64,000 nucleotides of DNA from Microgenomates group bacterium Gr01-1014_7 (lineage in GTDB: Bacteria > Patescibacteriota > Microgenomatia > Daviesbacterales > UBA10151), in the NCBI GenBank assembly GCA_007376405.1, contig VMGD01000001.1, positions 66,891-130,890 of the forward strand, read 5' to 3'. The position numbers and the translations under genes were made by a program. This document shows positions 8,283 to 44,160 of the stretch, in pieces; positions within the stretch are counted from its first letter, which is position 1; each line of letters starts with the position of its first letter. The notes under the pieces were generated by a model. It made no database searches. It was not told where the DNA came from and worked only from the letters and a program-made list of their open reading frames with translations.

Positions 8283-8283
8283 T

Positions 8284-14362: not shown

Positions 14363-15993
14363 ATCCCTAATGATACTAAAAATCCGGCTAAAGAGATAGC
14401 ATCGAGAGCCTTTTTAAAAGTTGTCTCCTCAAATGATATTTTTAGCTGATGCTGTCCAGGCGGAACATTGACATTAATCTGTCCAAAAGGTTGGCCGATT
14501 TCTATTTTATTTTGCTTACCGTCTATTTTAGCCACCCAACCCGGAAAGAAATATTTATTGTAATTTATTGTTGCGCTAACTGTTGACTCAACTGTAATCA
14601 AAGCATCTAAATCATTTAATCTCTCAAATTTCTTAATTTCTCCATTCTCAACAGAGACTAAAGGATAATTTTGATTAGGTCTCACTTGGGTATGCTTGGG
14701 TAATCTTAAATATTCTTCCTGAGTCTCTAAATATTCCTTACTTGCGGAAGGAGTGGGAATATATCTATTTAGAAAGTAGCTATCTTGTCTGCCTAGAAAA
14801 TCCTCTGGTCTAAAATAACTTCCGCTGGTAATTAAAGTAAGGACAATTATAACTGTAGCAATGATTGACTTAGACTTAAATTTGTCAAAAACTATTATTA
14901 AAAGTGGGGTTGCAAAAGTGGTTAGTATTAAAAATCTCCAGGGAAACTGGAAATAAGATAGCAAGGGCAGATTATTCCATAAAAACGTAGACCTGTAATT
15001 CATAAGAAAAAAGGCGGAGCCTAGACAGACAAAAACCCAAACAAGTAAAATCTTTATTTCTTTCCTAAATCTGGACCAGGAAGTAATAGCTATAATAAAT
15101 CCTGCAATTACCAAAAGTAAATTTACTATTCCCAAGAAGAAAGACATACCATCTCCCGGACCTGGAACAGACGCTCCATATCCCCAATAAAGAGTAATTA
15201 GTTGTGAAATCGTAGGATAATGATCGGCAAAATTAAAAACAGTATCATATTTCATAAGGTTTGAATCCACTATTGCCGGTAGCCAAAAATACATACTGGT
15301 AAATAAACCCAAAAAAATCATTAAAATTGACCTTACTGCAAATGCCTTTTTATTTTCACTTGCAAAAAATTGCATTAAAAAAAACAGAGCCACAAAAGGA
15401 AAAAACATATATGAAGTAATATTGTGCGACAACACTAGGGAAGAAAGGGTAAGTGCTCCAATCCCTATCCACCTTAAGTTTGATTCCTTAATCTTTACAA
15501 TTGATAATAAAATTAAGGGTAAAAACACAAAACTTACTACCTCGCCGACCGCTCCACGGATATACAGATCAACCGCTCTGTAAGGGGTATAAATATATAA
15601 GGTTGCTCCGGCTAAACTTAAAGATCTTGAGATAAACTGTCGCAAAAGTAGATACATGAATACAAAAGATATGGGGATGCTAATAAAAAATAATGCTTTG
15701 ATGCTATCAACCAAACTTAGACCCAAAAGGTGAAATATTTCAGCTATATAAAAAGGCAGCGGAAAAACAAAGTTAAATAAAGGATAGCCAAAACCAAAAC
15801 TTAAATCGGGTACAAAGCGGGGAGGAATTTTACCGGAGAGAAGAGTTTTATGCATCTCATATAACCAGGCAATGTGAATATCATCAGACGCCCCATAAAA
15901 ACCCGGCACAAAAAGCGCCCAACAAGCCGGGATAAACAAAAGAGGCACTATTACCCACCAGTATCTAGTTAAAACGTTTTTTAGATTTACCAT
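14317..15993 (-). CDS. polytopic membrane protein, 'DD...IPxRWVPD...GYP' family (putative GT-C-like)
   Basis: 558 aa. 'GASDDIHIAWLYEMHKTLLSGKIPPRFVPDLSFGFGYPLFNFVFPLPFY'. A DD motif directly follows TM1. Confidence 0.55.
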   Translation of the reverse strand: MVNLKNVLTRYWWVIVPLLFIPACWALFVPGFYGASDDIHIAWLYEMHKTLLSGKIPPRFVPDLSFGFGYPLFNFVFPLPFYIAEIFHLLGLSLVDSIKALFFISIPISFVFMYLLLRQFISRSLSLAGATLYIYTPYRAVDLYIRGAVGEVVSFVFLPLILLSIVKIKESNLRWIGIGALTLSSLVLSHNITSYMFFPFVALFFLMQFFASENKKAFAVRSILMIFLGLFTSMYFWLPAIVDSNLMKYDTVFNFADHYPTISQLITLYWGYGASVPGPGDGMSFFLGIVNLLLVIAGFIIAITSWSRFRKEIKILLVWVFVCLGSAFFLMNYRSTFLWNNLPLLSYFQFPWRFLILTTFATPLLIIVFDKFKSKSIIATVIIVLTLITSGSYFRPEDFLGRQDSYFLNRYIPTPSASKEYLETQEEYLRLPKHTQVRPNQNYPLVSVENGEIKKFERLNDLDALITVESTVSATINYNKYFFPGWVAKIDGKQNKIEIGQPFGQINVNVPPGQHQLKISFEETTFKKALDAISLAGFLVSLGMCFSKNLRQSGPFGL

Positions 15994-17629
15994 AGAAAAC
16001 TACCCCTATTAAAATTATTAAAGAGACTAGAGAAGTAACATTGGAAATTTTACGAATAGTAGTATCAACAAATTTTCCCGATACAAAATAGTCTCCCCCT
16101 CTCTCAAAGTTAATACTTATTCTTCCCAAGTAATTTTTATTAGAGAAACTCATCTTTTGATCATTAACTTTAACTTCCCAGATTGGAAAATCAAAAACAG
16201 GTACCTCAATGCTTGTTTTATCTTCCACCTTTGCTTGAAACTGCCATTTATTTGATCTATTCTCAAACTTCAAAACTTCCCCTTTTCCTGAAACTACAAT
16301 TGGCTTATCAGGTGCAGCCTCTCTGGGTTGTACAGCGGTCTGGGGCAGGTAATCCAAGATGGCAGCTTTTTGCTGGTCCTCCCAAAGTTTACCTGATAAT
16401 TTTTCCTGATCAGTCATACTAGGATAAAATTCTTTTGGTTTAAAATAATTCCAGTTTAAAATAATGATTAAGATAATTAAAATTAAGCTTAAGTATTTTT
16501 TATAAACTTCTTTAAAATTTTGAACAAGATATGCTCCGAGTAGACTGGATGAGAAAATTGCCACTGATAAAAATCTCCAGGGGAATTGAGTGAATTTTAA
16601 AACTTCAATTTTTTCCCAGATAAAAGCAGATTTTATATGTGTCATAAAAATTGAAAACAAAAATGTCATAAATAAAAGGAGAGATAAACTATTAAATTTT
16701 CTTTTATAAATTATGCTAAAGAGAAACATTATAAAGGCAGCTACTACTATCCACCAATGTGGCCAGCCTATCTGAAAAGATATAGTGTCATTTGTACCCG
16801 GAGATGATGCTCCATAGCCCCAGGAGCGGTCAAATAAAAGCTGAGGTACGGTTACAAAATGGGCTCTAAAATTTAAATCTAACCTAATTAGGTTATCTAT
16901 TTGAACTAAATTCTTCTCAAAATATGCAGGAAAGATAAAGAAAGAAGACAGTCCTATTCCCAAAATTAGGCCTAAAGCCAGCGAAGATAAATTCTTCCAT
17001 TTTTCCAGTACCAGTTGGTACAGAATGAATATTAAAAGCACAGGAAAAAATAGAAGAATCATAATATTATGACTCACTAAAAAGATCGCCAAGGAGACGG
17101 ATAAACCAACTAAATATTTGGTGCTTTTAAGCTTAGTTAGCTTTAAGGCAAAATAAAAAACCAAAGGGATGGTAGCCATAGCAAAACTTTCAGCAACGGC
17201 TCCCCTGACATAGGTATCAAGGGAACGGTATGGGGCAAAGGTATAAAGCACGGATGCTAAAATTGCAGGGTATACTCCAAAAAGCTCTTTTGCCAAAAGA
17301 TACATTGAAATTGCACCTAAAAACAAAGGAATAGCAAAAAGCAACTTGGCGGAAGCTAAAAAACCAAAAATGTAGCTTAGAATTGCCGCAAGATAGTAGG
17401 GAAATACACTGTAATAGTTAAACAAAGGATAACCATTACCATATCCCATATCCGGCACCCATCTACAAGGAATTTGTAAATCCTCAATGCATTTTCTCAT
17501 CTCAAAAATCCTCATCACCTGTAAATCATCGTGGTGAGAAAAATATCCGGGCAGAAAAAGAGGCCATAAAGTAAGACCTAAAAGCAGTAGAGTAAAAACA
17601 AACCAATACTTAGCTAAAACTTTTTTCAT
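15965..17629 (-). CDS. polytopic membrane protein, 'DD...IPxRWVPD...GYP' family
   Basis: 554 aa. 'SHHDDLQVMRIFEMRKCIEDLQIPCRWVPDMGYGNGYPLFNYYSVFPYY'. Confidence 0.55.
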   Translation of the reverse strand: MKKVLAKYWFVFTLLLLGLTLWPLFLPGYFSHHDDLQVMRIFEMRKCIEDLQIPCRWVPDMGYGNGYPLFNYYSVFPYYLAAILSYIFGFLASAKLLFAIPLFLGAISMYLLAKELFGVYPAILASVLYTFAPYRSLDTYVRGAVAESFAMATIPLVFYFALKLTKLKSTKYLVGLSVSLAIFLVSHNIMILLFFPVLLIFILYQLVLEKWKNLSSLALGLILGIGLSSFFIFPAYFEKNLVQIDNLIRLDLNFRAHFVTVPQLLFDRSWGYGASSPGTNDTISFQIGWPHWWIVVAAFIMFLFSIIYKRKFNSLSLLLFMTFLFSIFMTHIKSAFIWEKIEVLKFTQFPWRFLSVAIFSSSLLGAYLVQNFKEVYKKYLSLILIILIIILNWNYFKPKEFYPSMTDQEKLSGKLWEDQQKAAILDYLPQTAVQPREAAPDKPIVVSGKGEVLKFENRSNKWQFQAKVEDKTSIEVPVFDFPIWEVKVNDQKMSFSNKNYLGRISINFERGGDYFVSGKFVDTTIRKISNVTSLVSLIILIGVVFYGKSKKRFN

Positions 17630-19347
17630 TTCTTTGTTTTAAGATATAGCCCTAAAACAGCTATTATAGATATCAAAGTAATTATATTACCTATTTGTCT
17701 GACCGGTGTATCTTGTAACTGCGCTTTGATTTTATATTTCCCCGGAGAAAGCTTAAAACTGATAAGACCAAAACAATACTCTTCTCCCCTGCAATCAACA
17801 GTATGAGGTAAGGTGTTTCCCCCTGCAGTTACTTTCATTCCCGGGAAATCAAAAAGAGGCAGTCTTATTAATGCTTCTTTTTTCACCTCCACCTCTCCGG
17901 TTTGAAAATTACTGCCCTTTTGATAGTTTAAAAAGTTTGCTTGTCCTTCTAAGACCTCCGGAAACTTGGGAGCTTTATGGTTGGGAGGAAGCTTAGCATA
18001 AATAGGTAAATAATCAAAAATGCTGATAGTTAGTTGCTTTTCCCATAATTTACCAGAGAATTTATCCGTATCAGATATATTTACCCAATCCTTAGGAGTA
18101 AAAAATTGACTGTGAAGTATAAAAGTTGCAGCTAAAATAAAAAGAGCGAAAATTAGAGCAATTTTTTTATTAAGTAAGCCAACGAAAAAAACTGTGATAG
18201 CCCCCAGGAAAGATAAAAGAAAAATACTATCCGTTAAAAATCTCCAGGGAAATTGTAGCCACCAAAGAACCGGTAATTTTTCCCAGATAAAAGAAGATTT
18301 TTGGTGAATCAAAAAAAGTACTGCCAACTCTGTAATACTAAAAACAATTGCTAAAATCGCCATATTTTTTTGTTTTTTAAAAAAGGCAAAGGCTAGGATT
18401 AAACCAAGCAGACCAAGCATCCAGTGTATCTGACCTGTGGAAAGAGTTAGGTTATTATCCTGGCCGAGTCCCGATGACCCATATCCCCAAAGATTAGAAA
18501 TAAGTAGTCTATACAAAGATACGAAGTGCTGCCGGTAGTCAAAATATCCGCCTTGCAAGGTTTCAAGATGAACAAATTTTCCCTCAAAAATAACCGGCAA
18601 AGTAAAAAAGGATGCCAAGCCTATTCCCAATATCCCCCCAAAAAAAAATTTTGGGATCATCTTCCATCTATTCTTAATAATTAATAAAACCAAACACCAC
18701 AAAAGGGCAATGGGTGCAAAAATTAAAGTCATAAGATTGTGAGTAATTAGCAAGAAAGCAGTAGAAAGAGAAAGAAAAATTAAATATTTTAGTTTGTTTT
18801 TAGTTATTAGTTGATAAACAGCCCAAAAAACTAAGGGGTATAAAATTAAACTCCAAAATTCACTAAGCGCTCCCCTGACATAAATTTCCAATGCTTTGTA
18901 TGGAACATAGGTATAGAGCATTGCTCCCAAAAGAGCCGGTAGAGTTGTAGTGGCAAAACTTTTTTCTTTTACTTCCCCATCAAAAAAGGCTTTTAAAAAA
19001 ATAAACATAAAAACAGTTGAAAGAATGTATCCTAAGATAAATAAGATTTTTACAGAGTCAATTATTTGAATTCCAAAAAGATGAATAAAAGCTCCAATGT
19101 AATAAACAATGGGTGGATAAAATAAAAATTGAGGATAGCCATATTGATATCCCATATCCGGTACCCAGCGACAGGGGATTTGCAGGTCTTGAAAACACCT
19201 AAACATTTGGTGGACCCGAAAAGCTTGCAGATCATCTTGCATGAAGAAAAAACCCGGCCTAAGCAGTTGAATAAAGGTTGGGATAGTAAGTATTAAAGTT
19301 AATATTATCCAAAACGAATAAGGTCTTTTTTCAAGGAAATCAAACAT
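17626..19347 (-). CDS. polytopic membrane protein, 'DD...IPxRWVPD...GYP' family
   Basis: 573 aa. 'FMQDDLQAFRVHQMFRCFQDLQIPCRWVPDMGYQYGYPQFLFYPPIVYY'. ATGA overlap with the downstream gene. Confidence 0.55.
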   Translation of the reverse strand: MFDFLEKRPYSFWIILTLILTIPTFIQLLRPGFFFMQDDLQAFRVHQMFRCFQDLQIPCRWVPDMGYQYGYPQFLFYPPIVYYIGAFIHLFGIQIIDSVKILFILGYILSTVFMFIFLKAFFDGEVKEKSFATTTLPALLGAMLYTYVPYKALEIYVRGALSEFWSLILYPLVFWAVYQLITKNKLKYLIFLSLSTAFLLITHNLMTLIFAPIALLWCLVLLIIKNRWKMIPKFFFGGILGIGLASFFTLPVIFEGKFVHLETLQGGYFDYRQHFVSLYRLLISNLWGYGSSGLGQDNNLTLSTGQIHWMLGLLGLILAFAFFKKQKNMAILAIVFSITELAVLFLIHQKSSFIWEKLPVLWWLQFPWRFLTDSIFLLSFLGAITVFFVGLLNKKIALIFALFILAATFILHSQFFTPKDWVNISDTDKFSGKLWEKQLTISIFDYLPIYAKLPPNHKAPKFPEVLEGQANFLNYQKGSNFQTGEVEVKKEALIRLPLFDFPGMKVTAGGNTLPHTVDCRGEEYCFGLISFKLSPGKYKIKAQLQDTPVRQIGNIITLISIIAVLGLYLKTKK

Positions 19348-19350
19348 AAA

Positions 19351-20832
19351 TTATGGAAAAACTTTATATAAAACCATTGCATCCTGTTCGGAACCATCCA
19401 AGGGCCTGGCTTTAGGATATTCTCTAACAAGTTCCGCTTTTTGAATGACCAGCTTTAGATTTTTTTTATTGCCAACAAAATAGGTCGCATTCTCCCTTGC
19501 GGTATCTCTAATTTGAGCTGAAATTGTAGCACTGCCGCCTATAATTGCTATATCATCTTTATCCAAGTATATCCAAAGACCATCGGGCAAGGTTCCAAAA
19601 GATCCTTCTGTCCCGACAATTACTTTTCCCTCTTTCCTTTTTTCTTTTAAAAACCCTGCAATATCTTTTAAGCCAAAACCTGCAGTCCAGTCCTCAAAAT
19701 AACCTTTTCTTTCCTCATTTGGCAGCGAATCCGGCGGAGGATTTGTTAAAAGCTGATAATCAAATTTAAGGGGCAAAAAAACTACAAGTATCAAAAGTAT
19801 TATGAGAGGTATTACCCTTGATATTTTTTCCATACCAAATCCTGCCAAAATTAAAAGTAGCGGTATAGAAGGAAGTAAATATCTTGCTGTAAAAGTTCTC
19901 AAAAATGTCATCTCCACCAAAAGAGGGATAATTGCCCAAGCCAGAATTACCCATCCCAACTTGTTTTTCTCCTTAACCATAAACCATAAACCATAAACCA
20001 TCAGACCAATTATTGGCCATGTTAAAAGTTTGGGAAACCAGTCTGAAATATCATGAAAATGCGGTATAAAAGGATCGAGCGGCCTGCCCACCAGTTCCAC
20101 TGGAGAGAAAACATAATCGGCATTTCTGGCAGATAACTGACGAAACTCCGGACCCAGTCTTAAAAGGTTATACATGACAAGGGCAATTACCACTGCCACT
20201 CCCCAGAATGCTACCAGTTTAACCAGTCTATATTTACCTGCCCCAGCTTTCTTAAACCCTAAAATGGAAACAGGCAAAATTAGCAGATTAAGCATTCCCG
20301 GAGTTTTGGTTAAAATTGCTCCACCCAGCATATAGCCTAAAATCATTGCTAAATCCAGTCTCAAGCTTTTTAAAAGCCAAACGGCAAAATAAACTACCCA
20401 GACGGTAAAGGCAGAGAGCATTGAATCTACCAAAGCCATCCGGTCAAAAAAAACAGTATATGGAGTAATTACATACACTAGAGATGCCCAAAGAGCAGCT
20501 TTGGCATTAAAAACTTTTCTGCTCAGGAAAAAAACACCTAAAAGAGTGAAAAAGCCGGACAGAACTGACAAAAATCTTCCGGCCAAAAGCGGATCATGGA
20601 TAAACTTAAAAAGAGGAATTAAGCTCCACATAAAAAGCGGGGTTTTGCCGTCAGTTTGAGGTAAAAAGCGAAGAGTCGGTTCAGACCTCATCACTTGAGC
20701 CCAGCGGATATAGATTGCCTCATCCGCAAAAATCGGCTGCAGGGTTAAATTAGGTAGCCTGAGAATAAAATAGGCAATTATTAAGCAAACGAGAACTATT
20801 ATTTCTCTTTGGTATTTCCAGACAAAATTCAC
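19351..20832 (-). CDS. GT-C fold glycosyltransferase, ArnT/PMT-like
   Basis: 493 aa. 'LQPIFADEAIYIRWAQVM' acidic loop after TM1; multi-TM. Confidence 0.6.
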   Translation of the reverse strand: MNFVWKYQREIIVLVCLIIAYFILRLPNLTLQPIFADEAIYIRWAQVMRSEPTLRFLPQTDGKTPLFMWSLIPLFKFIHDPLLAGRFLSVLSGFFTLLGVFFLSRKVFNAKAALWASLVYVITPYTVFFDRMALVDSMLSAFTVWVVYFAVWLLKSLRLDLAMILGYMLGGAILTKTPGMLNLLILPVSILGFKKAGAGKYRLVKLVAFWGVAVVIALVMYNLLRLGPEFRQLSARNADYVFSPVELVGRPLDPFIPHFHDISDWFPKLLTWPIIGLMVYGLWFMVKEKNKLGWVILAWAIIPLLVEMTFLRTFTARYLLPSIPLLLILAGFGMEKISRVIPLIILLILVVFLPLKFDYQLLTNPPPDSLPNEERKGYFEDWTAGFGLKDIAGFLKEKRKEGKVIVGTEGSFGTLPDGLWIYLDKDDIAIIGGSATISAQIRDTARENATYFVGNKKNLKLVIQKAELVREYPKARPLDGSEQDAMVLYKVFP

Positions 20833-20869
20833 TATACTATTGTACGTCTGTTAGTTTCCAGAGGCAAGC

Positions 20870-21610
20870 CTAATATTTTCCTCTGAGGTCATTTATTCTA
20901 ATTCTGAACATGTCATAGATGGCAGCTGCGGCATCTTTTATCACTTGTACCCTTTCGGTATCAACATAATTCCACTCCACCCCAACTTCCGCGATATTAA
21001 ATCCATACTTTTTTGCCAGATATAGTACTTCCACATCAAATCCCGCATTTACAGCCCCACCCTTAAAATGTACTACTCCCCATTCACTTTTAATCTTGGG
21101 AATAATTTTTTCCACGGCTTTTTTATTAAAAGCCTTGAATCCGCATTGAGTGTCCGTAAAAGGCAAATCCAAAATAATATTTCGCAGAACCGAAAAACCC
21201 CAGGCTGCCAATTTTCTCGCCAGAGGAGCTCCTTTTCTTCCCTGACGGGAACCAATCACAATATCAAAGCCTTCTTCAAATTTAGGTATAAATTTCTCCA
21301 GCTGGTTAATTGGGGTAGCCTGATCCATATCTGTAAAAAGGATTATTTCTCCATTGCTAGCAAGCATACCGGTCATTACCGCATTAGCTTTCCCGCCATG
21401 CGGAACCTGAATTAAATTAAATTTGGGATTTTTCTTGACATACTCCTCAATGACTTCTTTTGTTTCGTCTATTGACCCATCATCAACAATAATTACCTCA
21501 TATTCTAAAGCCATACCTTTTAAAAAATCTTTTACTTCTTCCAATACTCCTCTTTTTAAATTTTTGGCTTCATTATATGCGGGTATGACAATGGAAAGTT
21601 TGGTACTCAT
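20870..21610 (-). CDS. GT2 polyprenyl-phosphate sugar synthase (DPM1/GtrB/CsbB-like)
   Basis: 246 aa. MSTKLSIVIPAYNEAKNL...VIIVDDGSIDET...TDMDQ...DTQCGFKAF is the signature of dolichyl/undecaprenyl-phosphate hexose synthases. Confidence 0.75.
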   Translation of the reverse strand: MSTKLSIVIPAYNEAKNLKRGVLEEVKDFLKGMALEYEVIIVDDGSIDETKEVIEEYVKKNPKFNLIQVPHGGKANAVMTGMLASNGEIILFTDMDQATPINQLEKFIPKFEEGFDIVIGSRQGRKGAPLARKLAAWGFSVLRNIILDLPFTDTQCGFKAFNKKAVEKIIPKIKSEWGVVHFKGGAVNAGFDVEVLYLAKKYGFNIAEVGVEWNYVDTERVQVIKDAAAAIYDMFRIRINDLRGKY

Positions 21611-23799
21611 TAGGGCCTCCCACTTGGGTTAGCAATTAATTTATATAGTTTTACTCCATAAACTTCTTGCTCCCATTCTATTTTAGACCATCCAAAAGCA
21701 GCAATCTCATGTTTTGGGCTGTGTGTCGGATCACATACAGGGTCCTCGCAAACTACAAACAGCTGATCTGTTTTCTCAGCCGGAACCGGTTTGGGTTTGT
21801 GCCCATATAAATCCAGATAAAACTGGTAAGTCGAATCATAATTATTTTTGGCAAGTAGAGCAAAATTAAATGATCTTCCTTCCGATTTATCTATAATAAA
21901 CTTGGCCACGTCTTGCGTTCTTTTTAACTGGTTATTGGGTGGGTAAACAAGAGGATTTTTTTGCAAATTTACCAGAGTTAATGCCAAAAGCAAAACAGGA
22001 ACTGCTGTCCAAAAAAGTAAACGAATTCCCACATGAGACGTGGGAACTCGAACTAAATTTAGGGATGCTGCCAAAAGCAAATACGGAGCAGGGTTTAAAA
22101 ACCCTAAATAATGATCATAAATGCTGCTTTGATAAAGGGATAAACCCACAAGGCCAATAACCAGCCATACCGCAAGGGCGAATAAAGACCACTCCATCTC
22201 CTTTCCTTTAAACCTTTGCACAATCAGTTTAATTATTGGCAGCAGAATTAATATACCTACTACGGCAGTTAATATTAAATTTTCTGCTGTGATATATCTG
22301 CCTATCAGATTATTAAAATAAAGACCGGGAACTTTGACAAGAATACCCAAAGGGTTAAATTCAACTGCCTGATGATCAAAGAGAAGTTTTTTTATGGCAC
22401 GGAAATTTAAAAAATTATTACGAAGATCAAATAAAACAAACGGCAACATGACAGCCCAAAAAGCAATTACCGCCCCCAGACTGCCCGTCAGAATATTTCT
22501 TCCCTTTTTTTGAAAATATTGAAAAAACCAGAGGATAAGGTAGATTGGAATTAAAAGCACGACCAGATAATGCATCTGCAAAGCTGCTGCAGCTGCTGCT
22601 CCTACTAAAATAAACCATAAAAAATTTTTGGTTTGGTAAGCTTTATAACATCCCCAGATACCAATTAAAGAAAAAAAAGGGGCCGGGTTGGGGTTCCAAG
22701 AAGAACGGGAATAAATAATATTCACCGGTGAAATAGCATAAAGAAAAGCTGCAATTAAAGCCGAGGCTCTCCCAAACCAGATCTTACCCAGATAATAAAT
22801 CAACATTACTGTTGCCACTCCAATTAAGGCATCCATTCCGGCAGCTGCAGTGGGATTTAGCCAAAAAATAGCCATGGGGATAGTCATCATATAGTAGTAA
22901 AACGGACCTAAATAAATATTGCCGACAGAAGTGGGCGGACCAATAAAGGGTAAATCACCTTCTGTTAAAATTTTCTTAATAATAATTGCATCCCGTCCCT
23001 CATCCCCCAAAAAAGTCATATACCCAGAAAGTTTATAGAAACGCAAAAAGCAGGCAAGTAAAATTATCCCTAGGAGGCATAGGAACAAAGTTTTATTATC
23101 CTTAAGTTCCCACCAAAGTTTTATTAGATCAAGGTAAGATTTAATAATTACATTGAAATTCGCTCCTGTTGGTTTGCCGGAAAGCCGCGGAAAGTGATTT
23201 ACCCCAACCTGACCAATCTTGAAACCGGCCTTTTTGGCTTTGATGGCTAGTTCGGCATTGATCATGGCCCCCCTACTTGATTCCAAACGGGGAATTTTTT
23301 CCAAAACTTTTCTTTTAACCATCTTAAACCCGCAATCCACATCTTTTAAAGTTAGTCTGAAAAATGCCAGCAGTGTTAATTTCCAGCCCTTTTTAAAAAA
23401 AATTCTAAAAAAAGGGTCTCGTCTTTTGATGCGATAGCCAATAATCAGATCGTTAGTTTCTATTTTTTCCAAAAACTTGTTCACTTCGGAAAAATCAAAC
23501 TGCCCGTCTCCGTCGGTATAAACAATGGTGTCGAATTTGGCATTATAAAAGCCGGATTTTAATGCTTCCCCGTAGCCTGAATTTTTGGGATGATGAATGA
23601 CTCTAACTTTGGGATTTTGTTTGGCCAGACTGTCTGCTACTTTACCTGTTTTATCTGTAGAGCCGTCATCAACAACAATCACTTCATAATCTTCAAGTTT
23701 TAACTTTTCCAGAACTTTTAAGGCATTTTCAATCGTATTTTCAATATTTCCTTCTTCATTAAACACAGGGAAGAAAACAGAAAGATTTTTAATGGACAT
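21610..23799 (-). CDS. bifunctional fusion: N-terminal GT2 polyprenyl-phosphate sugar synthase domain + C-terminal GT-C membrane glycosyltransferase domain
   Basis: 729 aa. Residues 1 to about 235 are DPM1/GtrB-like (FFPVFNEEGNI...VIVVDDGSTDKT...TDGDGQ...DVDCGFKMV). Residues from about 240 to 729 are multi-TM, with the 'FLGDEGRDAIIIKKILTEGDLPFIGPPTSVGNIYLGPFYYY' motif shared with genes 37935.., 39457.. and 42686... Confidence 0.7.
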   Translation of the reverse strand: MSIKNLSVFFPVFNEEGNIENTIENALKVLEKLKLEDYEVIVVDDGSTDKTGKVADSLAKQNPKVRVIHHPKNSGYGEALKSGFYNAKFDTIVYTDGDGQFDFSEVNKFLEKIETNDLIIGYRIKRRDPFFRIFFKKGWKLTLLAFFRLTLKDVDCGFKMVKRKVLEKIPRLESSRGAMINAELAIKAKKAGFKIGQVGVNHFPRLSGKPTGANFNVIIKSYLDLIKLWWELKDNKTLFLCLLGIILLACFLRFYKLSGYMTFLGDEGRDAIIIKKILTEGDLPFIGPPTSVGNIYLGPFYYYMMTIPMAIFWLNPTAAAGMDALIGVATVMLIYYLGKIWFGRASALIAAFLYAISPVNIIYSRSSWNPNPAPFFSLIGIWGCYKAYQTKNFLWFILVGAAAAAALQMHYLVVLLIPIYLILWFFQYFQKKGRNILTGSLGAVIAFWAVMLPFVLFDLRNNFLNFRAIKKLLFDHQAVEFNPLGILVKVPGLYFNNLIGRYITAENLILTAVVGILILLPIIKLIVQRFKGKEMEWSLFALAVWLVIGLVGLSLYQSSIYDHYLGFLNPAPYLLLAASLNLVRVPTSHVGIRLLFWTAVPVLLLALTLVNLQKNPLVYPPNNQLKRTQDVAKFIIDKSEGRSFNFALLAKNNYDSTYQFYLDLYGHKPKPVPAEKTDQLFVVCEDPVCDPTHSPKHEIAAFGWSKIEWEQEVYGVKLYKLIANPSGRP

Positions 23800-23821
23800 G
23801 GTAATATGCTAACATCAAATT

Positions 23822-24961
23822 ATGCACAAAACAACGAAAGACCTTATTCTTCTTTTGGTTGCGGTACTAACGATAACCTTTCTTGTTTGGCTTCCACATT
23901 TTTTGGCTTTACCAGATTTTTGGGGATTATCCTTCAAAGAAGGATTTTCTACAATCTATCGCAACTTTGACGGTTTGGAATATGTCACTATTGCTAAAAC
24001 TTTTTATAATCCTGCTGCTTTAGCCTCTGTTCCACAAACCCTTCCTGCCAATTATTTTGCTTCCCACTTCCCCGGATATTCAATCCTAATGACCCTTTTT
24101 GCACCGGTTTTGGGGTATCTAAAATCAATGCTTTTTGTTTCCCTAATATCTACAATTTTAGCAGTTTGGTCTTTTTACTTTTTACTTAAAACTTTTAACT
24201 TAACTTCCCATCCTCTTTTTTTAAGTTTTATTTTTCTCATCTTGCCTGCCAGGTGGTTGATTGTGCATAGTGTTGGCTCATCCGAGCCGTTATTTTTATT
24301 TTTGACAATAACCACGCTTTATTTTTTTATTCGTTTCGAGCAAACCGGCCATTACACCGACATAGTATTTGCAGGTGTTGCCGGCCTGCTTGCCCAAATC
24401 ACCAGACCGCCGGGAATTTTGCTTTTTATTGCTCTAATGCTTTATGTACATTGGCGCAAAAAAGCCTGGCTTGATCCTTTAAAATACTTCCCAATGATTC
24501 TTATCCCATTGGGACTACTGGGAGTTTTCTATCTATTTAGTCAAACGTATGGGGACTTTTGGGCTTACTTTAAAAGCGGAGATAACATTCACCTTACCTT
24601 CCCTCCTTTCCAGGTTTTTAATAAACACCAGTTTTGGGTAGGGGATATCTGGCTGGAAGATATTGTTTATATTTTTATATTGGGATTTTTGGGGGGAGTG
24701 ACCCTGTGGAGGAAAAAACTATACCCCTTGGCTTTTTTTGTTTTAACCTATTTAACAGCCGCCATCTTTGTTGCCCACAGAGATATTAGCAGATATATTC
24801 TTCCGGTCACTCCGTTTATCCTAATTGCCTTTGAAAAAGTTTTAACTTCCAAAGAATTTAAAATTATTCTGCCGATTATTGCGCTGGCAATTTATCTCTA
24901 TACCCAAAACTTTATGCTCACCAACACCGCCCCCATCCCCAATCTGGAAATTTATAACTAA
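23822..24961 (+). CDS. polytopic membrane protein, unknown family
   Basis: 379 aa, multi-TM. Divergent from the upstream minus-strand operon with only a 22-bp spacer. 4-nt overlap with the convergent GT2 gene end. Confidence 0.45.
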   Translation: MHKTTKDLILLLVAVLTITFLVWLPHFLALPDFWGLSFKEGFSTIYRNFDGLEYVTIAKTFYNPAALASVPQTLPANYFASHFPGYSILMTLFAPVLGYLKSMLFVSLISTILAVWSFYFLLKTFNLTSHPLFLSFIFLILPARWLIVHSVGSSEPLFLFLTITTLYFFIRFEQTGHYTDIVFAGVAGLLAQITRPPGILLFIALMLYVHWRKKAWLDPLKYFPMILIPLGLLGVFYLFSQTYGDFWAYFKSGDNIHLTFPPFQVFNKHQFWVGDIWLEDIVYIFILGFLGGVTLWRKKLYPLAFFVLTYLTAAIFVAHRDISRYILPVTPFILIAFEKVLTSKEFKIILPIIALAIYLYTQNFMLTNTAPIPNLEIYN

Positions 24962-26142
24962 TCTTCCTGATGTTTCCAGGTAATAAAATGATTCATTAAA
25001 AAGTTCCATACCATAACCGGTGGGATTGTTGCTAAAAAGTAGAAGTTATTATAGGCAATTGCCTTACCAAAAATATTTACCGACCCATCTCCATATGTTA
25101 AATGCAAATATTTTACAATCAAAACGCCAATTATCAATCCTCCAAGACTAACCAGGTTAAAAATCCCCAATTTTTGCCAAAAATTGGTTTTGGTTTTTCT
25201 ATATCTAAAAGTCCAGTAATTATTCAAAATAAAATTGTTGATGATGGCAATTTCGGTGGAAATTCCTTTTGACGACGCTGGTGGAAATCCAAAACTTCTG
25301 ATAAATATTTTATAAAACAAAAAGTCAACCAAAGTCCCTATAAACCCAACTAGACCAAACTTGACAAATGTCTTAGCTCTCCTGGTCAGGTAGAAAAAGC
25401 GGATATTAAAACCCCATTTATGTAGCCTGACATCAATACAGTAAGTAATAACATCATATGTATAATTGAAAACTTTATTTTTAGAATAACCCTCAAGACG
25501 ATTTTTAAATACCAGTGGTACTTCTTTATATTTTGCTCCCGCCATAATCATTTCATGCAAAAAGGCAGGTTGGACAATAAAAGTTTTTTCCCTCCATGGT
25601 AATCTCGCCAGGTTTATTTTTTTAAAAATTTGCGGAGTAAATGCCCGGGCAGAATTGGTAAATTCTTTAACATCCGAAGGCCCCATTACAATCCTGCAAA
25701 AAAGCGATGAGCCAAGGGTGAAAATACGCCTTGCCAAAGTCAGCTTATTTTTTCCACCCTCCATCAGTCTTGACCCGATAACAAAATCATAACCTTCCTC
25801 TATACCTTTAACTAACCTTACCAAAACATCCGGTTCAACCTGCCCATCAGCATCAAGTTGGGCTAAAACATCAGGATGAATTTTTTCCAGCGCAAACTGA
25901 TGACCTTTTATCAAGCCGGCTCCCAAACCCGGCTCAACTTTTAGAAAATGTACTTTGGAGTTTTTGCGGAAAAGCTGTTGGGCAATTTTATCAGTACCAT
26001 CTGAAGTTCTGATATCATCTGCAACTACAATTTGTATTTCCCAGCCCGGAAGACTTTTTTGCTGAGCTAAAACTTTTTCTACAGTTGATGTGATGTTTGC
26101 TTTTTCGTTATAGGTGGGTAAAACTACCGATACTTTCTTCAT
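24958..26142 (-). CDS. GT2 polyprenyl-phosphate glycosyltransferase with C-terminal GtrA-like membrane domain
   Basis: 394 aa. N-terminal GT2 domain (VSVVLPTYNEKANI...VVADD...LDADGQ). The C-terminal ~120 aa has four TM helices in a GtrA-like arrangement (KFGLVGFIGTLVDFLFYKIF...NNYWTFRYRK). Confidence 0.7.
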   Translation of the reverse strand: MKKVSVVLPTYNEKANITSTVEKVLAQQKSLPGWEIQIVVADDIRTSDGTDKIAQQLFRKNSKVHFLKVEPGLGAGLIKGHQFALEKIHPDVLAQLDADGQVEPDVLVRLVKGIEEGYDFVIGSRLMEGGKNKLTLARRIFTLGSSLFCRIVMGPSDVKEFTNSARAFTPQIFKKINLARLPWREKTFIVQPAFLHEMIMAGAKYKEVPLVFKNRLEGYSKNKVFNYTYDVITYCIDVRLHKWGFNIRFFYLTRRAKTFVKFGLVGFIGTLVDFLFYKIFIRSFGFPPASSKGISTEIAIINNFILNNYWTFRYRKTKTNFWQKLGIFNLVSLGGLIIGVLIVKYLHLTYGDGSVNIFGKAIAYNNFYFLATIPPVMVWNFLMNHFITWKHQED

Positions 26143-27179
26143 GAAAACTTTGCAAGATCGTAGTGGACCATAATTTTAACCAGATCCTTAAATTTAGTTT
26201 TTGGCTCCCAATCTAAAACTTTTTTGGCGTAAGATGCATCCCCTTGGAGCGGCCCTGTTTGCACAGGCGGAACAAAATTAGAATCAGTCACAACATACTC
26301 TTTCCAATCAAGGCCGACTGTAGCAAATGCTTCCCGGACAAAATCTTCCACCGTGTGAATCTCACCTGTGGCTATCACAAAATCATTGGCTTGTCTTTGT
26401 TGTAATATTTTCCACATAGCTTCGACATAATCCGGTGAGTAACCCCAGTCCCGTTCGGCATTTAAATCTCCCAATTTTATTTTGCCGTTTTGAACAATAG
26501 GTTCACCTATTTCATTTAAAGGAATTCCTTCTTTTTTATTGTTTTTTATACAAGCTACCCCGGCTGTAATTTTCCTGGTTACAAAATTAAGTCCTCTTCG
26601 GGGGCTTTCGTGATTAAATAAAATTCCACAGGAAATAAATTGAGGTTGTTTCCGATCTAATCTTCCAATAACCGCCATTCTATGGGCAAACTCTTTGGCA
26701 GCAGCATAAGGATTTGCCGGACTAAACGGGGTAGCCTCATTTTGCGGCACCTGCTTTGGAACACCAAACATCTCCGAAGTTGAGGCCTGATAAACTTTTG
26801 CCTCAGGGACAATCTGTTTTGCCCTCTCAAAAACATGCAAAGCTCCCACCCCTGTAATCATGATTGAGGCAAACTTGTCACTAAAAGAAGCAAAAGGAGA
26901 CGACAGAGAAGCAAGATTGTAAATTTCATCCGGTTTAAAATCCAGTAGTGCCAGAGCAATAGATTCAGGTGATTGAAGATCACCAAAATATATTTTTATA
27001 TCATCTTTTATGTGTTCAATATTGCCCAGTTCCCCTATGGCATTTCGTCTTATTAACCCCCCCACTTCATATCCTTTATTTAATAAGAGCTCGCTTAGGT
27101 ATGAGCCGTCCTGACCCGAAATTCCGGTGATGAATGCTCTTTTAGATTTTGCCATTTGGATTACTATATCTAATTTCAA
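26139..27179 (-). CDS. gmd: GDP-mannose 4,6-dehydratase
   Basis: 346 aa. 'RAFITGISGQDGSYLSELLLNKGYEVGGLIRR' and the overall SDR pattern match Gmd. Confidence 0.8.
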   Translation of the reverse strand: MKLDIVIQMAKSKRAFITGISGQDGSYLSELLLNKGYEVGGLIRRNAIGELGNIEHIKDDIKIYFGDLQSPESIALALLDFKPDEIYNLASLSSPFASFSDKFASIMITGVGALHVFERAKQIVPEAKVYQASTSEMFGVPKQVPQNEATPFSPANPYAAAKEFAHRMAVIGRLDRKQPQFISCGILFNHESPRRGLNFVTRKITAGVACIKNNKKEGIPLNEIGEPIVQNGKIKLGDLNAERDWGYSPDYVEAMWKILQQRQANDFVIATGEIHTVEDFVREAFATVGLDWKEYVVTDSNFVPPVQTGPLQGDASYAKKVLDWEPKTKFKDLVKIMVHYDLAKFS

Positions 27180-28069
27180 CCCTTCCCGTCAACTTCTTCT
27201 TTGAAAAGTTTTATACTTTCTTCAACCGAATGTAAAATCCCCTGCCCGAATTCACCAGTAAACTTAGCGCTATCAAGCCAGGAATTCTTTAAAAGTTTTG
27301 CCATTTTCTTTTGATTGTATTCACCCAATGTCATCGAGACAATTAATGAGGAGTCTAAATTAAAAGCTTGAACAATCTGTTTGGCAAATTCAAACGGGGT
27401 AGTATGATTTATTGATGAAACATGGTAGATTCCCGAAGCTTTTCCCTCTACTAAAACAGCCAGCGCATTGGCAATATCATCGGTTAAAGTGGGAGTTATT
27501 CTCTGATTAATTATTGCTTTAATTTGCTTTTTTTCTCTTAGCTGATTTAAAAAAAACCTTGCTATATCAGATTTTTGCTGATAGTAAGCAGAGTATGGCA
27601 TGGATAATCTAACAATTATATAAGAACAACCACTCTCTAAAACATTTTGCTCTCCAAAATACTTAGTTTGACCATACCAGTTTATCGGATTAGGTTTATC
27701 TTCTTCAATATAAGGACTACCGGATTTTGTTCCATCAAAAATATATTCTGTAGAAATATGGATTAGATGCTTCTCTAAAATTTTACATGCATCAGCTACA
27801 TTTTTTGCGCCGGCGGCATTTAACATATAAGCTAAACCCCGTTTGTCGTTTTTTTGCTTCTCTGATTCTTCTACATGCGTAAAAGCAGCAAAGTTAATTA
27901 TAACCTCTGCTCCCGAATCTTCTATAAATTTTGACGCTTGATTGAAATCTGTAATATCTACAAGACTTGCCGGAGGGGAGCTTATGTTGAAGCGGCCGGC
28001 ATTTAGCTCTAAAAACTTCGAGCCGACTAGGCCACTGCCACCAAAGATCAATACTTGTCTTTTATTCAT
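27176..28069 (-). CDS. rfbD: dTDP-4-dehydrorhamnose reductase
   Basis: 297 aa. The RmlD substrate-binding pattern (VLIFGGSGLVG...INFAAFTHVEESE...HISTEYIFDG...YGQTKYFGE) aligns with E. coli RmlD. Last gene of the rmlABCD run. Confidence 0.7.
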   Translation of the reverse strand: MNKRQVLIFGGSGLVGSKFLELNAGRFNISSPPASLVDITDFNQASKFIEDSGAEVIINFAAFTHVEESEKQKNDKRGLAYMLNAAGAKNVADACKILEKHLIHISTEYIFDGTKSGSPYIEEDKPNPINWYGQTKYFGEQNVLESGCSYIIVRLSMPYSAYYQQKSDIARFFLNQLREKKQIKAIINQRITPTLTDDIANALAVLVEGKASGIYHVSSINHTTPFEFAKQIVQAFNLDSSLIVSMTLGEYNQKKMAKLLKNSWLDSAKFTGEFGQGILHSVEESIKLFKEEVDGKG

Positions 28070-28644
28070 TTGAATTTTTCGGGAAACAAATCACGAAGCT
28101 TGGGGTTATTTTTATCACGTTCCGATATAATTGGATTTTTAATCGGCCAGTTAATTGCCAAATCCGGATCATCCCAGGCAATAGCCCTGGTATCTGAACC
28201 ATCATAGTAGGCATCAATCAGATAAATGTAATCGACTGATGTCTCGCTCGTTACACAAATTGAATTAGCCAAACCATTGGGTATAAACAGTCCAACTCTA
28301 TTGCTGTCATTAATGTCAAAGGTTTCGACTTTTCCAAAAGTGGAGGAATCACCTCTTACATCAACTATTGCCACGAAAACTTGTCCGTTTAAAGGATAGA
28401 CAATTTTGTTCCATCTCTCCGCATGAATGCCTCTTAAGACTCCGGGGTCTGAATGGGAATGATTCATCTGCACCCCGCTGAATTTAACCCCGGCAATCTT
28501 TTCTAACTCATCCAGATGAAAAATCTCCCTGAAAAATCCTCTATCGTCTTTATGAATAGGTCTTTCTAAAATCAAAAGTCCCGAGATTGAAGCTTTTTTA
28601 ATATATTTATTGTCCATAAGATTTTTGGGCCGAGGCATCAACAT
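28066..28644 (-). CDS. rfbC: dTDP-4-dehydrorhamnose 3,5-epimerase
   Basis: 192 aa cupin. 'HKDDRGFFREIFH...GIHAERWNKIVYPLNGQVFVAIVDVRGDSSTFGK' is typical of RmlC. Confidence 0.8.
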   Translation of the reverse strand: MLMPRPKNLMDNKYIKKASISGLLILERPIHKDDRGFFREIFHLDELEKIAGVKFSGVQMNHSHSDPGVLRGIHAERWNKIVYPLNGQVFVAIVDVRGDSSTFGKVETFDINDSNRVGLFIPNGLANSICVTSETSVDYIYLIDAYYDGSDTRAIAWDDPDLAINWPIKNPIISERDKNNPKLRDLFPEKFK

Positions 28645-29614
28645 TCGGCCTCCCCTGCTTTAATGGTCTCCACCACCACTCATTTTCCTTGTACCATTTA
28701 ATGGTTTCATCCAATCCTTGATCAAAATTAAATTCTGGTTTCCATCCTAAGTTTTGAAGTTTTGTATCATCTAGTGCATAACGAAAATCGTGACCAAGAC
28801 GATCAGCTACCCTCTCGATCCATGATTCATCTTTACCTAAAGCCTTAAGGATTTTTCTGGTGACTTCAATATTCCTTTGTTGATCTCCTCCTATACAGTA
28901 AGTCTCCCCTACCTGTCCATGCAATAAAACTGTCTCAATTGAGCTGCAATCATCTAAAACAAAAATCCAGTCTCTGATATTTTCTCCCTGCCCCATCAAA
29001 GGCACTTTTTGCCCTTCAAGCAGATTAGTGATGAAGCGCGGTATTAACTTTTCCGGATCCTGATATGGACCGAAGTTGTTACCACAATTAGTAATGGTAA
29101 TGGGCAACTTATATGTCCGATAATACGATATTACCAGTAGGTCAGAGGCGGCTTTGGATGCAGCATAAGGACTTCTGGGTCTATACGGAGTATTTTCGGT
29201 AAAAGGCGGATCATTTAGCCCGAGCTGCCCATAAGTTTCATCAGTTGAAATATGATGAAACCTTTTTACCTCATGCTTCAAAGCTGTTGCGAGCAACACG
29301 CCAGTACCCATAACATTTGTATTTATAAATGGAGAGGGATCCATAATGGATCTGTCTACATGAGATTCTGCAGCAAAATTAACAACCATATCAACCCCTG
29401 CCATGGCCTTCTCCACATCAGCAGCATCAGTTATATCACCCTTTATAAAGGTGTAGTTGGGATTACCCTCGATATCTTTAAGAGATTCCAGATGGCCGGC
29501 GTAAGTAAGCGCATCCAAATTAACCACTTGATCGCCGGGATGAGTTCTTAACCAGTAATGAATAAAATTCGAACCGATAAAACCGGCTCCACCGGTTACC
29601 AAAAGTTTACTCAT
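28607..29614 (-). CDS. rfbB: dTDP-glucose 4,6-dehydratase
   Basis: 335 aa. 'MSKLLVTGGAGFIGSNFIHYWL' and the extended SDR motifs match RmlB. Confidence 0.85.
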   Translation of the reverse strand: MSKLLVTGGAGFIGSNFIHYWLRTHPGDQVVNLDALTYAGHLESLKDIEGNPNYTFIKGDITDAADVEKAMAGVDMVVNFAAESHVDRSIMDPSPFINTNVMGTGVLLATALKHEVKRFHHISTDETYGQLGLNDPPFTENTPYRPRSPYAASKAASDLLVISYYRTYKLPITITNCGNNFGPYQDPEKLIPRFITNLLEGQKVPLMGQGENIRDWIFVLDDCSSIETVLLHGQVGETYCIGGDQQRNIEVTRKILKALGKDESWIERVADRLGHDFRYALDDTKLQNLGWKPEFNFDQGLDETIKWYKENEWWWRPLKQGRPNVDASAQKSYGQ

Positions 29615-30693
29615 AGTTGAATCTTACACTTTTCTCCGACAAAGAGTGTGGTTTTAGCTCCTCTGCCATTATTTCCTATTACTTCGCTATCCGTACCCAC
29701 TAAGCTGTCTTCCATTGGATGATCCTTAACCCCACTTACTCTTACTCCACTCATCAAAATAGATCTTTTTACTTTGCTTCTTAAAATCTCACATCCGTCC
29801 CCTATGGCAGTAAAAGGACCAATTTCCGAATCCTCAATTATCACCTTATCCCCTATTACCACCGGCCCTTTAATTTTGGAATTTCTAATTTCAACGTGTC
29901 TGCCTATTGAAACCTTACCTTCCACTTTTGAGGTTTTATCAATTTCACTCTCTACCTTTTCCTGTAAATTATTTTTCAAAATATACTCATTTGACCCGAG
30001 CCAGTCATCAATTTTTCCCGGATCAAGCCATTTACCTTTATATTCTAAAACATCAACCCGCATTCCATGATCTATCAGCCACTGGAAAGGCGCGCTTATT
30101 TCATACTCTCCCCGGGCAGAGGGTTTGATAGCATCAGCATCTTTAAAGCAGCGGAAAACTACTGCGCTAAAAAAATATATTCCCGGAATAGCAAAATCAT
30201 GAGGCGGATTTTCCGGTTTTTCCACATATTTTATTAAGTGGTCGTCTTTATCAAAATAAGGCACACCGAGACGGGTGTTCTCGCTGTGGTGAACCATTGC
30301 CACCAAACCATCCGGTTTTTGTCTTTCAAAATGAGAAACCAGACTGTTGATCCCGCCCACAAAAATATTATCCCCCAGGTGCATCACAAAAGATTCACCG
30401 TTAAGATATTCCTCAGCAACCTCAAAAATATTAGCCAGTCCTTTTGGCTGCTCCTGCAAAATATAGGTAAATTTAAGCCCCCATCTGGACCCGTCGCCTA
30501 AAACCGACTTTACTTCATCCAAATATCCCGGGTTATAAGTAATGCCCACTTCTTTAATCCCAGCATTGGCCACAGTTTCTATCGGGTAAAAAATTAAGGG
30601 TTTGTTGGCAACCGGAATAAAATGTTTATTGGTGGAAAAGGTAAGCGGTCTCATCCTGGTCCCGCGCCCGCCTGTTGGAATAATAGCTTTCAT
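29611..30693 (-). CDS. rfbA: glucose-1-phosphate thymidylyltransferase, long form with C-terminal left-handed beta-helix
   Basis: 360 aa. 'MKAIIPTGGRGTRMRPLTFSTNKHFIPVANKPLIFYPIE' nucleotidyltransferase motif; the C-terminal ~100 aa has hexapeptide-repeat character. Confidence 0.8.
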   Translation of the reverse strand: MKAIIPTGGRGTRMRPLTFSTNKHFIPVANKPLIFYPIETVANAGIKEVGITYNPGYLDEVKSVLGDGSRWGLKFTYILQEQPKGLANIFEVAEEYLNGESFVMHLGDNIFVGGINSLVSHFERQKPDGLVAMVHHSENTRLGVPYFDKDDHLIKYVEKPENPPHDFAIPGIYFFSAVVFRCFKDADAIKPSARGEYEISAPFQWLIDHGMRVDVLEYKGKWLDPGKIDDWLGSNEYILKNNLQEKVESEIDKTSKVEGKVSIGRHVEIRNSKIKGPVVIGDKVIIEDSEIGPFTAIGDGCEILRSKVKRSILMSGVRVSGVKDHPMEDSLVGTDSEVIGNNGRGAKTTLFVGEKCKIQL

Positions 30694-40950: not shown

Positions 40951-41011
40951 TACACCAATATAATCTTACTTTTAAAAACTTGCAATAGGATTTAGTATAA
41001 TAACTTATGTT

Positions 41012-44158: not shown

Positions 44159-44160
44159 AT

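Follow-up and report, generated by a model that had tools for sequence, protein, structure and literature searches.

Why should an enzyme predicted to make a lipid-linked sugar at the membrane's cytoplasmic face be covalently joined to one predicted to use such a sugar on the outer face? This question is raised by a 64,000-nucleotide stretch of DNA (referred to below as the window; contig VMGD01000001.1, positions 66,891 to 130,890) from Microgenomates group bacterium Gr01-1014_7, a metagenome-assembled genome (MAG) of the Candidate Phyla Radiation (CPR)/Patescibacteria. One gene of the window encodes a family 2 glycosyltransferase (GT2) that continues into a polytopic membrane protein of the GT-C type. 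Pairs of GT-A and GT-C enzymes are known; the assignment of a synthase to its GT-C has usually been worked out by genetics, and the step in which the sugar crosses the membrane often remains unassigned. The reading that we favour, and which we consider reasonably probable, is that the fusion protein is a covalent cognate synthase/transferase pair of an extracytoplasmic glycosylation system of the three-component type.

The fused gene and its two halves

The gene and its parts, as derived from the listing of open reading frames (ORFs), from domain searches and from an AlphaFold2 (AF2) model, are given below (TM, transmembrane helix).

21610..23799, minus strand: whole fused gene, GT2 plus GT-C, 729 aa (ORF listing; AF2 model)
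23104..23799, minus strand: GT2 domain with GT-A fold, predicted cytoplasmic polyprenyl-phosphate sugar synthase, residues 1-232 (Pfam PF00535, PDB matches, Foldseek)
23506..23514, minus strand: DXD metal/nucleotide-sugar motif D96-G97-D98, with Q100 (invariant in 51 homologs)
23104..23157, minus strand: predicted amphipathic interface helix, residues 215-232 (FNVIIKSYLDLIKLWWEL), final element of the GT2 half (model and hydropathy of 0.75)
23038..23103, minus strand: fusion junction, residues 233-254, consisting of the linker LKDNK and TM1 of the GT-C half (junction comparison, hydropathy)
22855..23037, minus strand: first outside loop (EL1), residues 255-315 (invariant columns; positive-inside topology)
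21961..22854, minus strand: GT-C membrane core, TM2-TM11, residues 316-613 (Pfam PMT_2, Foldseek, loop charges)
21613..21960, minus strand: C-terminal predicted extracytoplasmic alpha/beta domain, residues 614-729 (secondary structure of the model; C-out topology)

The frame starts with ATG and contains no internal stop codon, and an open frame of 729 codons cannot arise by chance in DNA of about 37% GC. Its translation is 100% identical to a GenBank/NCBI entry of the same organism named simply 'Glycosyltransferase'. Pfam recognizes PF00535 (GT2) at residues 7-169 (E 2.4e-32) and PMT_2 (PF13231) at residues 299-447 (E 6.2e-11, 43.2 bits against a cutoff of 26.1); the uninterrupted frame and the presence of both domains bear out the original prediction of a single polypeptide made of a GT2 and a GT-C. 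Around the junction, where a hidden frameshift or stop would have been most suspect, the window sequence is continuous and reads through without a stop or a change of frame (...LIKLWWELKDNKTLFLCLLGIILLACFLRFYKL).

An assembly or frameshift error joining two genes deserves consideration, as relatives exist in which the two parts are separate genes, often with overlapping stop and start codons. Against such an artefact stand over 120 homologs of full length, of 707-740 aa and at 61-70% identity, each with GT2 and PMT_2 and drawn from independent NCBI, JGI, ENA and Logan assemblies, as well as a continuous ORF in 21 of the 81 loci scored in the next section. In addition, the linker is conserved across relatives, and the AF2 model, built on 51 sequences, is confidently two-domain (pLDDT 88, pTM 0.83). 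Because of the independent full-length homologs and the 21 loci with a continuous ORF the fusion is real; an artefact is effectively ruled out, its probability being negligible. The same data answer the question of whether the fusion recurs in related genomes.

In the GT2 half, the best PDB matches by sequence are the Pyrococcus furiosus DPMS (5mlz, 1.6e-14), GtrB (3e-13) and ArnC (9e-12 to 3e-11). These matches span query residues ~3-190, whereas those to other GT2s reach only ~3-120, i.e. the nucleotide-binding part. Identity to GtrB, ArnC and DPMS is merely ~20-26%. When Foldseek was run with the model of the fusion, ranks 1-21 were all taken by ArnC, DPMS and GtrB. The D-x-D..Q stretch aligns to D-A-D..Q of P. 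furiosus DPMS and, with invariance scored in 51 homologs, the residues D45, D96xD98, Q100, D153/D155 and R205 do not vary. Two helices of the model, 130-147 (hydropathy 0.91) and 215-232 (0.75), have intermediate hydropathy values and are predicted to lie at the membrane interface; the second ends in ...DLIKLWWEL, with W229 and W230 invariant. The GT2 half has no C-terminal TM helices of its own: it ends near residue 232 and is followed by TM1 of the GT-C half. Sequence and fold thus agree with the DPM1/GtrB-type GT2 proposed originally for residues 1-235, and we predict that this half is a polyprenyl-phosphate glycosyltransferase of the DPMS/GtrB/ArnC type.

It is conceivable that the GT2 glycosylates some other acceptor, for instance a glycolipid, a cytoplasmic loop or a lipid-linked oligosaccharide, and that the two activities act sequentially on one glycan. 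The GT2 half has no equivalog-level match in NCBIfam, its scores being far below the cutoffs (for instance 75 against 500 for PgfS, 59 against 529 for ArnC), and generic GT2 families, PgaC and GpgS among them, also score against it. The top sequence and fold matches, on the other hand, are exclusively to polyprenyl-phosphate glycosyltransferases and extend into the acceptor side, the model contains amphipathic interface helices, and GT-C enzymes require donors linked to polyprenyl phosphate or diphosphate. We therefore consider another acceptor very unlikely and retain the polyprenyl-phosphate sugar synthase.

The GT-C half (residues 236-729) is predicted, from model helices and the positive-inside rule, to have 11 TM with the N-terminus in and the C-terminus out. 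A plain count of model helices gives 12 TM, which is inconsistent in parity; 11 are obtained after assigning helix 300-311 to EL1. The mean number of lysines and arginines over the 51 sequences is 1.8-4.0 in short inside loops and 0-0.2 in short outside loops. As the half is N-in, the GT2 domain can be placed in the cytoplasm without any additional TM segment. EL1 carries the invariant D266, R269 and D270, a nearly invariant E267, and an invariant G287-P288-(P-T)-S291. All the conserved polar motifs, namely DEGRD (266-270), GPPTS, SSWNPNP (366-372), QMHY (408-411) and YDHY (561-564), face outwards in the predicted topology, which conforms to the arrangement anticipated for this protein, with GT2 inside and the GT-C loops outside. 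The C-terminal outside domain (~115 aa) contains invariant C684-E685..C689. After the GT2-type matches, Foldseek lists ArnT (5f15, E 8e-9, TMt 0.57) and AglB, so that the fold of this half is ArnT/AglB-like. An acidic outward EL1, polar motifs and an outside domain make up the canonical GT-C layout in this model. Together with the PMT_2 match above its cutoff and the 11-TM topology, the fold confirms that the C-terminal part is indeed a GT-C; within the PMT_2 clan the subfamily is a structurally uncharacterized branch.

Fused and separate pairs among relatives

When the GT-C half alone was searched against 1.84 billion representatives, 451 matches were obtained at E<=1e-30. The best 150 of these 451 are mostly stand-alone proteins with a length of ~500 aa; some ten of the 150 carry an N-terminal extension of ~230-255 aa, recognized by Pfam as GT2 in all cases except one. 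In a wider neighbour-joining tree of the GT-C the fused forms are scattered at a minimum of six positions.

For a survey of gene arrangement, one genome per species (GTDB) was scanned with the GT-C alignment, and the 80 best loci together with that of the nearest unfused relative (locus L003), 81 in all, were scored with hidden Markov models (HMMs) of both halves; GT-C identity in this set goes down to ~38%. The orthologous GT2 is fused to the GT-C in 21 loci. In 59 others it is a separate gene directly upstream (230-283 aa, 240-370 bits), which usually overlaps the start of the GT-C gene by 4-19 nt; this number includes one locus (L077) counted after correction of its start. In the remaining locus (L043) the GT2 lies ~1.1 kb upstream. 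Consequently, the two parts are fused or directly adjoining in 80 of the 81 loci. The split GT2 orthologs are devoid of TM helices.

The nearest unfused relative of the GT-C (P0121, in locus L003) shows 58% identity and is located 51 nt 3' of a separate 232-aa GT2. This GT2 likewise shares 58% identity with the fused GT2 domain, and its end falls precisely at the linker (...KLWMKLR, then the stop codon), while the GT-C begins with its own ribosome-binding site (GGGGA) and ATG.

When parsimony was applied to a tree of 79 complete pairs, the ancestor came out as split and a minimum of four transitions (fusion or fission) was required. Three types of junction were distinguished: the short ...WW.LKD.K linker, a longer conserved linker ...WWQLK.EILVERG.AVF.WE, and a junction with a different GT2 lineage, ..GEQTGGK... 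The split state appears to be ancestral as judged from these comparisons, and the scattered position of the fused forms, the number of changes and the three junction types show that the fusion arose independently several times. Such repeated fusion would be mechanistically easy, since the ancestral genes overlap. Covalent linkage is not essential, as most relatives are split. At the same time, their keeping of the two parts as adjacent separate genes indicates that synthase and transferase almost certainly operate as a pair. The coupling of donor synthesis and donor use, put forward at the outset from the single sequence, is thus supported by 80 of the 81 loci and by the repeated fusions. The correlation between GT2 and GT-C distances in a mirror-tree comparison was modest (r = 0.46) and non-discriminating, and is not used here as evidence.

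According to record titles, the named carriers are Daviesbacteria, Woesebacteria, Collierbacteria, Amesbacteria, Shapirobacteria, Blackburnbacteria, Beckwithbacteria and unclassified Microgenomates/Patescibacteria, and among named matches the GT-C subfamily appears to be restricted to CPR. Its proteins are annotated just as 'glycosyltransferase' or 'hypothetical'. Many carriers that are 'binchicken' MAGs (L004, L006, L012, L013, L016 and others) bear the title 'uncultured Gammaproteobacteria', one is titled 'Alphaproteobacteria' and one 'Clostridia'. The gene order in these loci is that of Daviesbacteria and Woesebacteria, and the other named carriers are all CPR; the titles are probably placeholders or wrong taxonomy.

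A proposed route from cytoplasmic synthesis to extracytoplasmic transfer

Based on these observations, we propose a scheme of three steps. In the first, the GT2 domain (residues 1-232), located in the cytoplasm and held against the membrane by its amphipathic helices, would move one sugar from a nucleotide sugar to polyprenyl (probably undecaprenyl) phosphate. In the second, the lipid-linked sugar would be brought to the outer leaflet. In the third, the GT-C, with its 11 TM, its outward DEGRD and its outside domain, would pass the sugar on to an acceptor at the cell surface, the most plausible ones being a wall glycan that contains rhamnose, or a surface protein, which the locus encodes or produces. 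As the GT2 lacks TM helices and TM1 of the GT-C would replace the TM hairpin of GtrB, ArnC and DPMS, the synthase would be anchored next to its consumer. The fusion, or a translationally coupled gene pair, would also fix the stoichiometry at 1:1, and in the split forms the two proteins would be expected to form a complex.

A flipping step between synthesis and use had rightly been flagged in the original prediction as the open point of the pathway. Under the proposed scheme it would be carried out by a separate flippase, for which the window encodes two candidates.

24958..26142, minus strand: GT2 fused to a GtrA/DPMS-type 4-TM domain, 394 aa (Pfam PF00535 and PF04138)
11769..13202, minus strand: Wzx-type flippase, Polysacc_synt_3 (Pfam E 5.9e-52)

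The first is a DPMS-like synthase and a candidate flippase and is kept upstream of the module in most relatives; the gene of the second lies ~8 kb from the fusion.

A system composed of a GT-A polyprenyl-phosphate-sugar synthase and a GT-C is already known in kind. In the literature searched we found no description of the covalent GT2-GT-C linkage, of its recurrent emergence or of the overlapping pair kept in CPR, nor anything specific on CPR GT-C biology; what it supplied was background, on three-component systems as well as on Ppm1 and Agl23. In the three- and four-component systems (GtrA/GtrB/GtrC; CsbB/GtcA/YfhO; GacI-J-K-L; SccN/SccM and SccP/SccQ), as is predicted here, a GT2 produces a polyprenyl-phosphate monosaccharide inside and a cognate GT-C consumes it outside. 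In Streptococcus mutans, SccN/SccM and SccP/SccQ are GT-A/GT-C enzymes that 'work in pairs' on polyrhamnose, with their flippases unidentified (PMC11754754), and synthases of the GacI/GacJ type depend on a membrane partner (PMC10821137). As in the Scc and Gac systems, where the pairs are specific, the genes are adjacent in a rhamnose-glycan locus (PMC11754754, PMC10821137). The present case differs in that the pair is one polypeptide or two overlapping genes, the GT2 has neither a TM segment nor a small activator subunit, and no solved structure is related to the GT-C subfamily at the level of sequence.

The closest parallel to the alternation of fused and split forms is Ppm1 (Rv2051c) of Mycobacterium tuberculosis, in which the synthase domain D2 is fused to the membrane domain D1, the two being split but interacting in M. 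smegmatis (PMC3485146). In both cases a TM-less polyprenyl-phosphate sugar synthase is fused to a polytopic partner in some species and separate in others. However, Ppm1 has its membrane domain, which comprises six TM and is not described as a GT-C, at the N-terminus, whereas here a C-terminal GT-C (PMT_2) with a predicted outward active site is involved. The GT2 half shares the GT-A fold, the DXD..Q motif and the interface helices with GtrB, ArnC and DPMS, but these have a C-terminal TM hairpin of their own or else a 4-TM domain that is GtrA-like. The GT-C half, in turn, resembles ArnT (GT83), PMT (GT39) and AglB in its membership of the PMT_2 clan, N-in orientation, acidic first outside loop, C-terminal outside domain and fold, and departs from them in the lack of detectable sequence homology to solved GT-Cs, in having 11 predicted TM instead of 13 and in a distinct set of motifs.

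The comparison with Haloarcula hispanica is of particular relevance to the flipping step, as it suggests another role for the membrane half. In this archaeon, Agl22 and Agl23 likewise combine a glycosyltransferase with a GT-C-like membrane protein acting on hexose-P-dolichol; Agl23, reported to be a flippase and not a transferase, is presented as a putative hexose-P-dolichol flippase, and the purified protein translocated a lipid-linked oligosaccharide in proteoliposomes (PMC11182771). The sole non-GT2 NCBIfam match of our GT-C half (residues 243-432) and of a neighbouring GT-C protein, GT-Cb, is TIGR03663 (Agl23), with E values of 2e-13 and 9e-11, respectively. The GT-C-like half might then itself translocate the lipid-sugar made by the attached GT2, with or without transferring it, and a separate flippase would be unneeded. 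In one form of this idea the protein would be a 'make, flip and transfer' machine, whose GT-C takes the lipid-sugar at the inner leaflet, flips it and uses it at its own outward site. Beside the weak TIGR03663 matches and the in-vitro translocation reported for Agl23, such a role would be in keeping with the near-universal pairing (80 of 81 loci) and with the joining of the synthase straight to TM1 of its partner, an arrangement that makes most sense if the product is handed over within a complex. Furthermore, flippases of undecaprenyl-phosphate-linked monosaccharides have stayed unidentified even in well-studied systems (PMC11754754).

Several points speak against it. The TIGR03663 score of the GT-C half is 50.2 bits against a cutoff of 126.25, so this half is not a member of the family. 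The invariant outward polar motifs and the conserved outside domain are typical of a transferase active site, and both a GtrA-domain protein and Wzx are encoded nearby. These outward motifs and the outside domain speak for transfer as at least one of the tasks of the GT-C. Translocation by the membrane half as such seems to us improbable, though not far-fetched, and the three-in-one machine is an equally doubtful proposition.

The proposed synthase/transferase pair has its own difficulties, which should be weighed together. The GT2 product and the GT-C substrate site lie on opposite faces of the membrane, so simple 'channelling' cannot be the benefit of the fusion unless flipping takes place in the protein or close by. 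The C-terminal part of the GT2 protein at 24958..26142 is the only GtrA-like element in the vicinity of the fusion, the ORF listing holds no stand-alone GtrA in the 18-27 kb part of the window, and the proteins named above are candidates for the flippase role. The sugar cannot be named, since all NCBIfam equivalog scores lie far below their cutoffs. The GT-C subfamily has no match in PDB at E<=1, either as a single sequence or as a family profile; the trees are neighbour-joining trees without support values, and the proposed enzymology rests on prediction.

A fused relative of 736 aa from a Logan assembly (P0163) adds a further complication. Its GT2 domain (residues 1-249) seems to be catalytically dead while the GT-C is intact: TDGDGQ is changed to LRADAG, and the acids of KDVDCGF (positions of D153/D155) are substituted. 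The retention of an apparently dead domain suggests a structural role beyond catalysis, and the GT2 of P0163 may be a pseudo-enzyme domain with such a role.

The surrounding glycan locus and its biological meaning

The window is a large surface-glycan locus, and the features beside the fusion that are needed for its interpretation are the following.

20870..21610, minus strand: GT2b, a second stand-alone TM-less GT2, 246 aa (ORF listing, Pfam)
19351..20832, minus strand: GT-Cb, a stand-alone PMT_2 GT-C after GT2b (Pfam PMT_2)
23822..24961, plus strand: divergent 379-aa TM-only protein of GT-C fold (same position in 72 of 81 loci; AF2 and Foldseek)
26139..30693, minus strand: nucleotide-sugar genes, namely GDP-Man-dehydratase-like, RmlD, RmlC, RmlB and RmlA-like (Pfam)
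37935..44158, both strands: three stand-alone paralogs of the fused GT-C subfamily, none with an adjacent GT2 (family HMM and motifs)

The stand-alone GT2 expected directly downstream of the fusion is real: GT2b has no TM and shares 34% identity with the GT2 domain of the fusion. The TAA of the fusion and the ATG of GT2b share one base (TAATG, window 21608..21612), and a GGAGG lies 8 nt upstream, inside the 3' end of the fusion; the overlap and the GGAGG point to translational coupling along the chain from GT2.GT-C to GT2b. A GT2b homolog is found 3' of the main GT-C in 57 of 81 loci. With GT-Cb, which is present downstream in 46-48 of 81, it makes a second, unfused GT2/GT-C pair. A recent duplication of the fused GT-C was ruled out as the source of GT-Cb, the two being 24% identical over just 174 aa.

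On the other side of the fusion, the 379-aa protein has no Pfam match, while its homologs are partly PMT_2 or named 'GT39'. Its AF2 model (pLDDT 79) is matched by Foldseek to STT3, ArnT, PglB, ALG3 and PimE, and an invariant loop N48-F-D50-G-(L)-E53-Y54 follows TM1. This neighbour was considered as the missing flippase, but was rejected as a classical one because of its GT-C fold. It appears instead to be the third fixed member of the GT2/GT-C module: given its fold and its constant position, the conserved core can be described as a short GT-C, divergently transcribed from the GT2.GT-C unit. Merely 22 nt (23800..23821) separate the divergent starts of the fusion and of the 379-aa GT-C, which implies either that the promoters lie inside the neighbouring coding sequences or that one of the starts is mis-called.

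The presence of so many GT-C genes leads to a last alternative, in which the GT-C half would only anchor the TM-less GT2 in the membrane or activate it allosterically, in the manner of Ppm2/D1 towards Ppm1 or of GacJ towards GacI. The lipid-sugar would then serve chiefly the remaining GT-Cs of the locus, and donor and consumer would not be specifically matched inside the polypeptide. The window encodes at least 12 GT-C-type genes and few GT2 synthases, the conserved 379-aa GT-C adjoins in 72 of 81 loci, the GT2 is devoid of TM helices, and there are precedents for the fusion and fission of a synthase and its membrane partner in Ppm1 (PMC3485146) and GacI/GacJ (PMC10821137). A mere anchor would not, however, account easily for the strong constraint on the outward catalytic-type residues of the GT-C half or for the specific orthologous pairing kept over deep divergence (GT-C identity down to ~38%); the tandem GT2b/GT-Cb pair, moreover, suggests a logic of one synthase, one transferase. 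We regard an anchoring or activating role alone as rather unlikely and keep to the cognate synthase/transferase pair.

The wider locus is itself conserved. The order of the nucleotide-sugar genes is identical in L001/L002 and L003, and a 65%-identical relative (L001/L002) shares the order of the whole locus. Three stand-alone genes had been assigned to one 'DxARD...GPPTS' family with the fused GT-C. All three match the family HMM over nearly their full length, with 151 bits for 42686..44158 (plus strand), 138 for 37935..39509 and 79.5 for 39457..40950 (both minus strand), so the relationship holds. The motif needs a slight correction: D[NM]ARD is found in two of the three, one of which additionally has GPPTS, but the fusion carries DEGRD (266-270) in its loop instead of DxARD. 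The neighbours of the paralogs are an epimerase gene and an F420-ligase-like gene. The latter (41901..42680, minus strand; PF01996, E 8e-35) encodes a protein of the F420-0:gamma-glutamyl ligase family, situated between GT-C paralogs and unexpected in a CPR genome; to our knowledge, CPR genomes are not noted for F420 metabolism.

Besides the three paralogs, a YfhO-type GT-C occurs elsewhere in the window. Altogether, the regions 1663..24961 and 37935..46509 of these 64 kb encode at least 12 membrane proteins of the GT-C type, recognized as PMT_2, PTPS_related or YfhO or at the level of fold; for a genome of roughly the 1-Mb class this is an unusually large commitment to extracytoplasmic glycosylation. 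The membrane proteins 13202..14362 and 15965..17629 (both minus strand), as well as 16225..17976 of L001, match PMT_2 and PF10131 ('PTPS_related'), and a relative has a weak STT3 match; they are further uncharacterized GT-C-like families in the same operon. Two proteins of the glycan locus, of 672 aa (6264..8282, minus strand) and 1162 aa (8284..11772, minus strand), have no Pfam match at E<=0.01.

What the fusion offers is a natural 'Rosetta stone' that links a synthase to its GT-C. The repeated fusion and the conservation of the overlapping module across Microgenomates-type CPR are, taken together, arguments for a physical unit of synthase and transferase that spans the two faces of the membrane. 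If the GT-C did make use of the sugar after flipping it itself, this would explain both the recurrence of the fusion and the missing dedicated flippase in many pathways based on undecaprenyl-phosphate-linked monosaccharides; only if that proves true would the fusion represent a new principle. As a single polypeptide of 729 aa, it would allow synthesis, flipping and transfer to be assayed jointly and might serve as a compact experimental means of studying the passage of lipid-linked monosaccharides across the membrane. For the organisms themselves, our results point to a conserved cell-surface glycosylation module, composed of a short GT-C, a GT2 and a GT-C, in bacteria with minimal genomes whose envelopes are almost unstudied.

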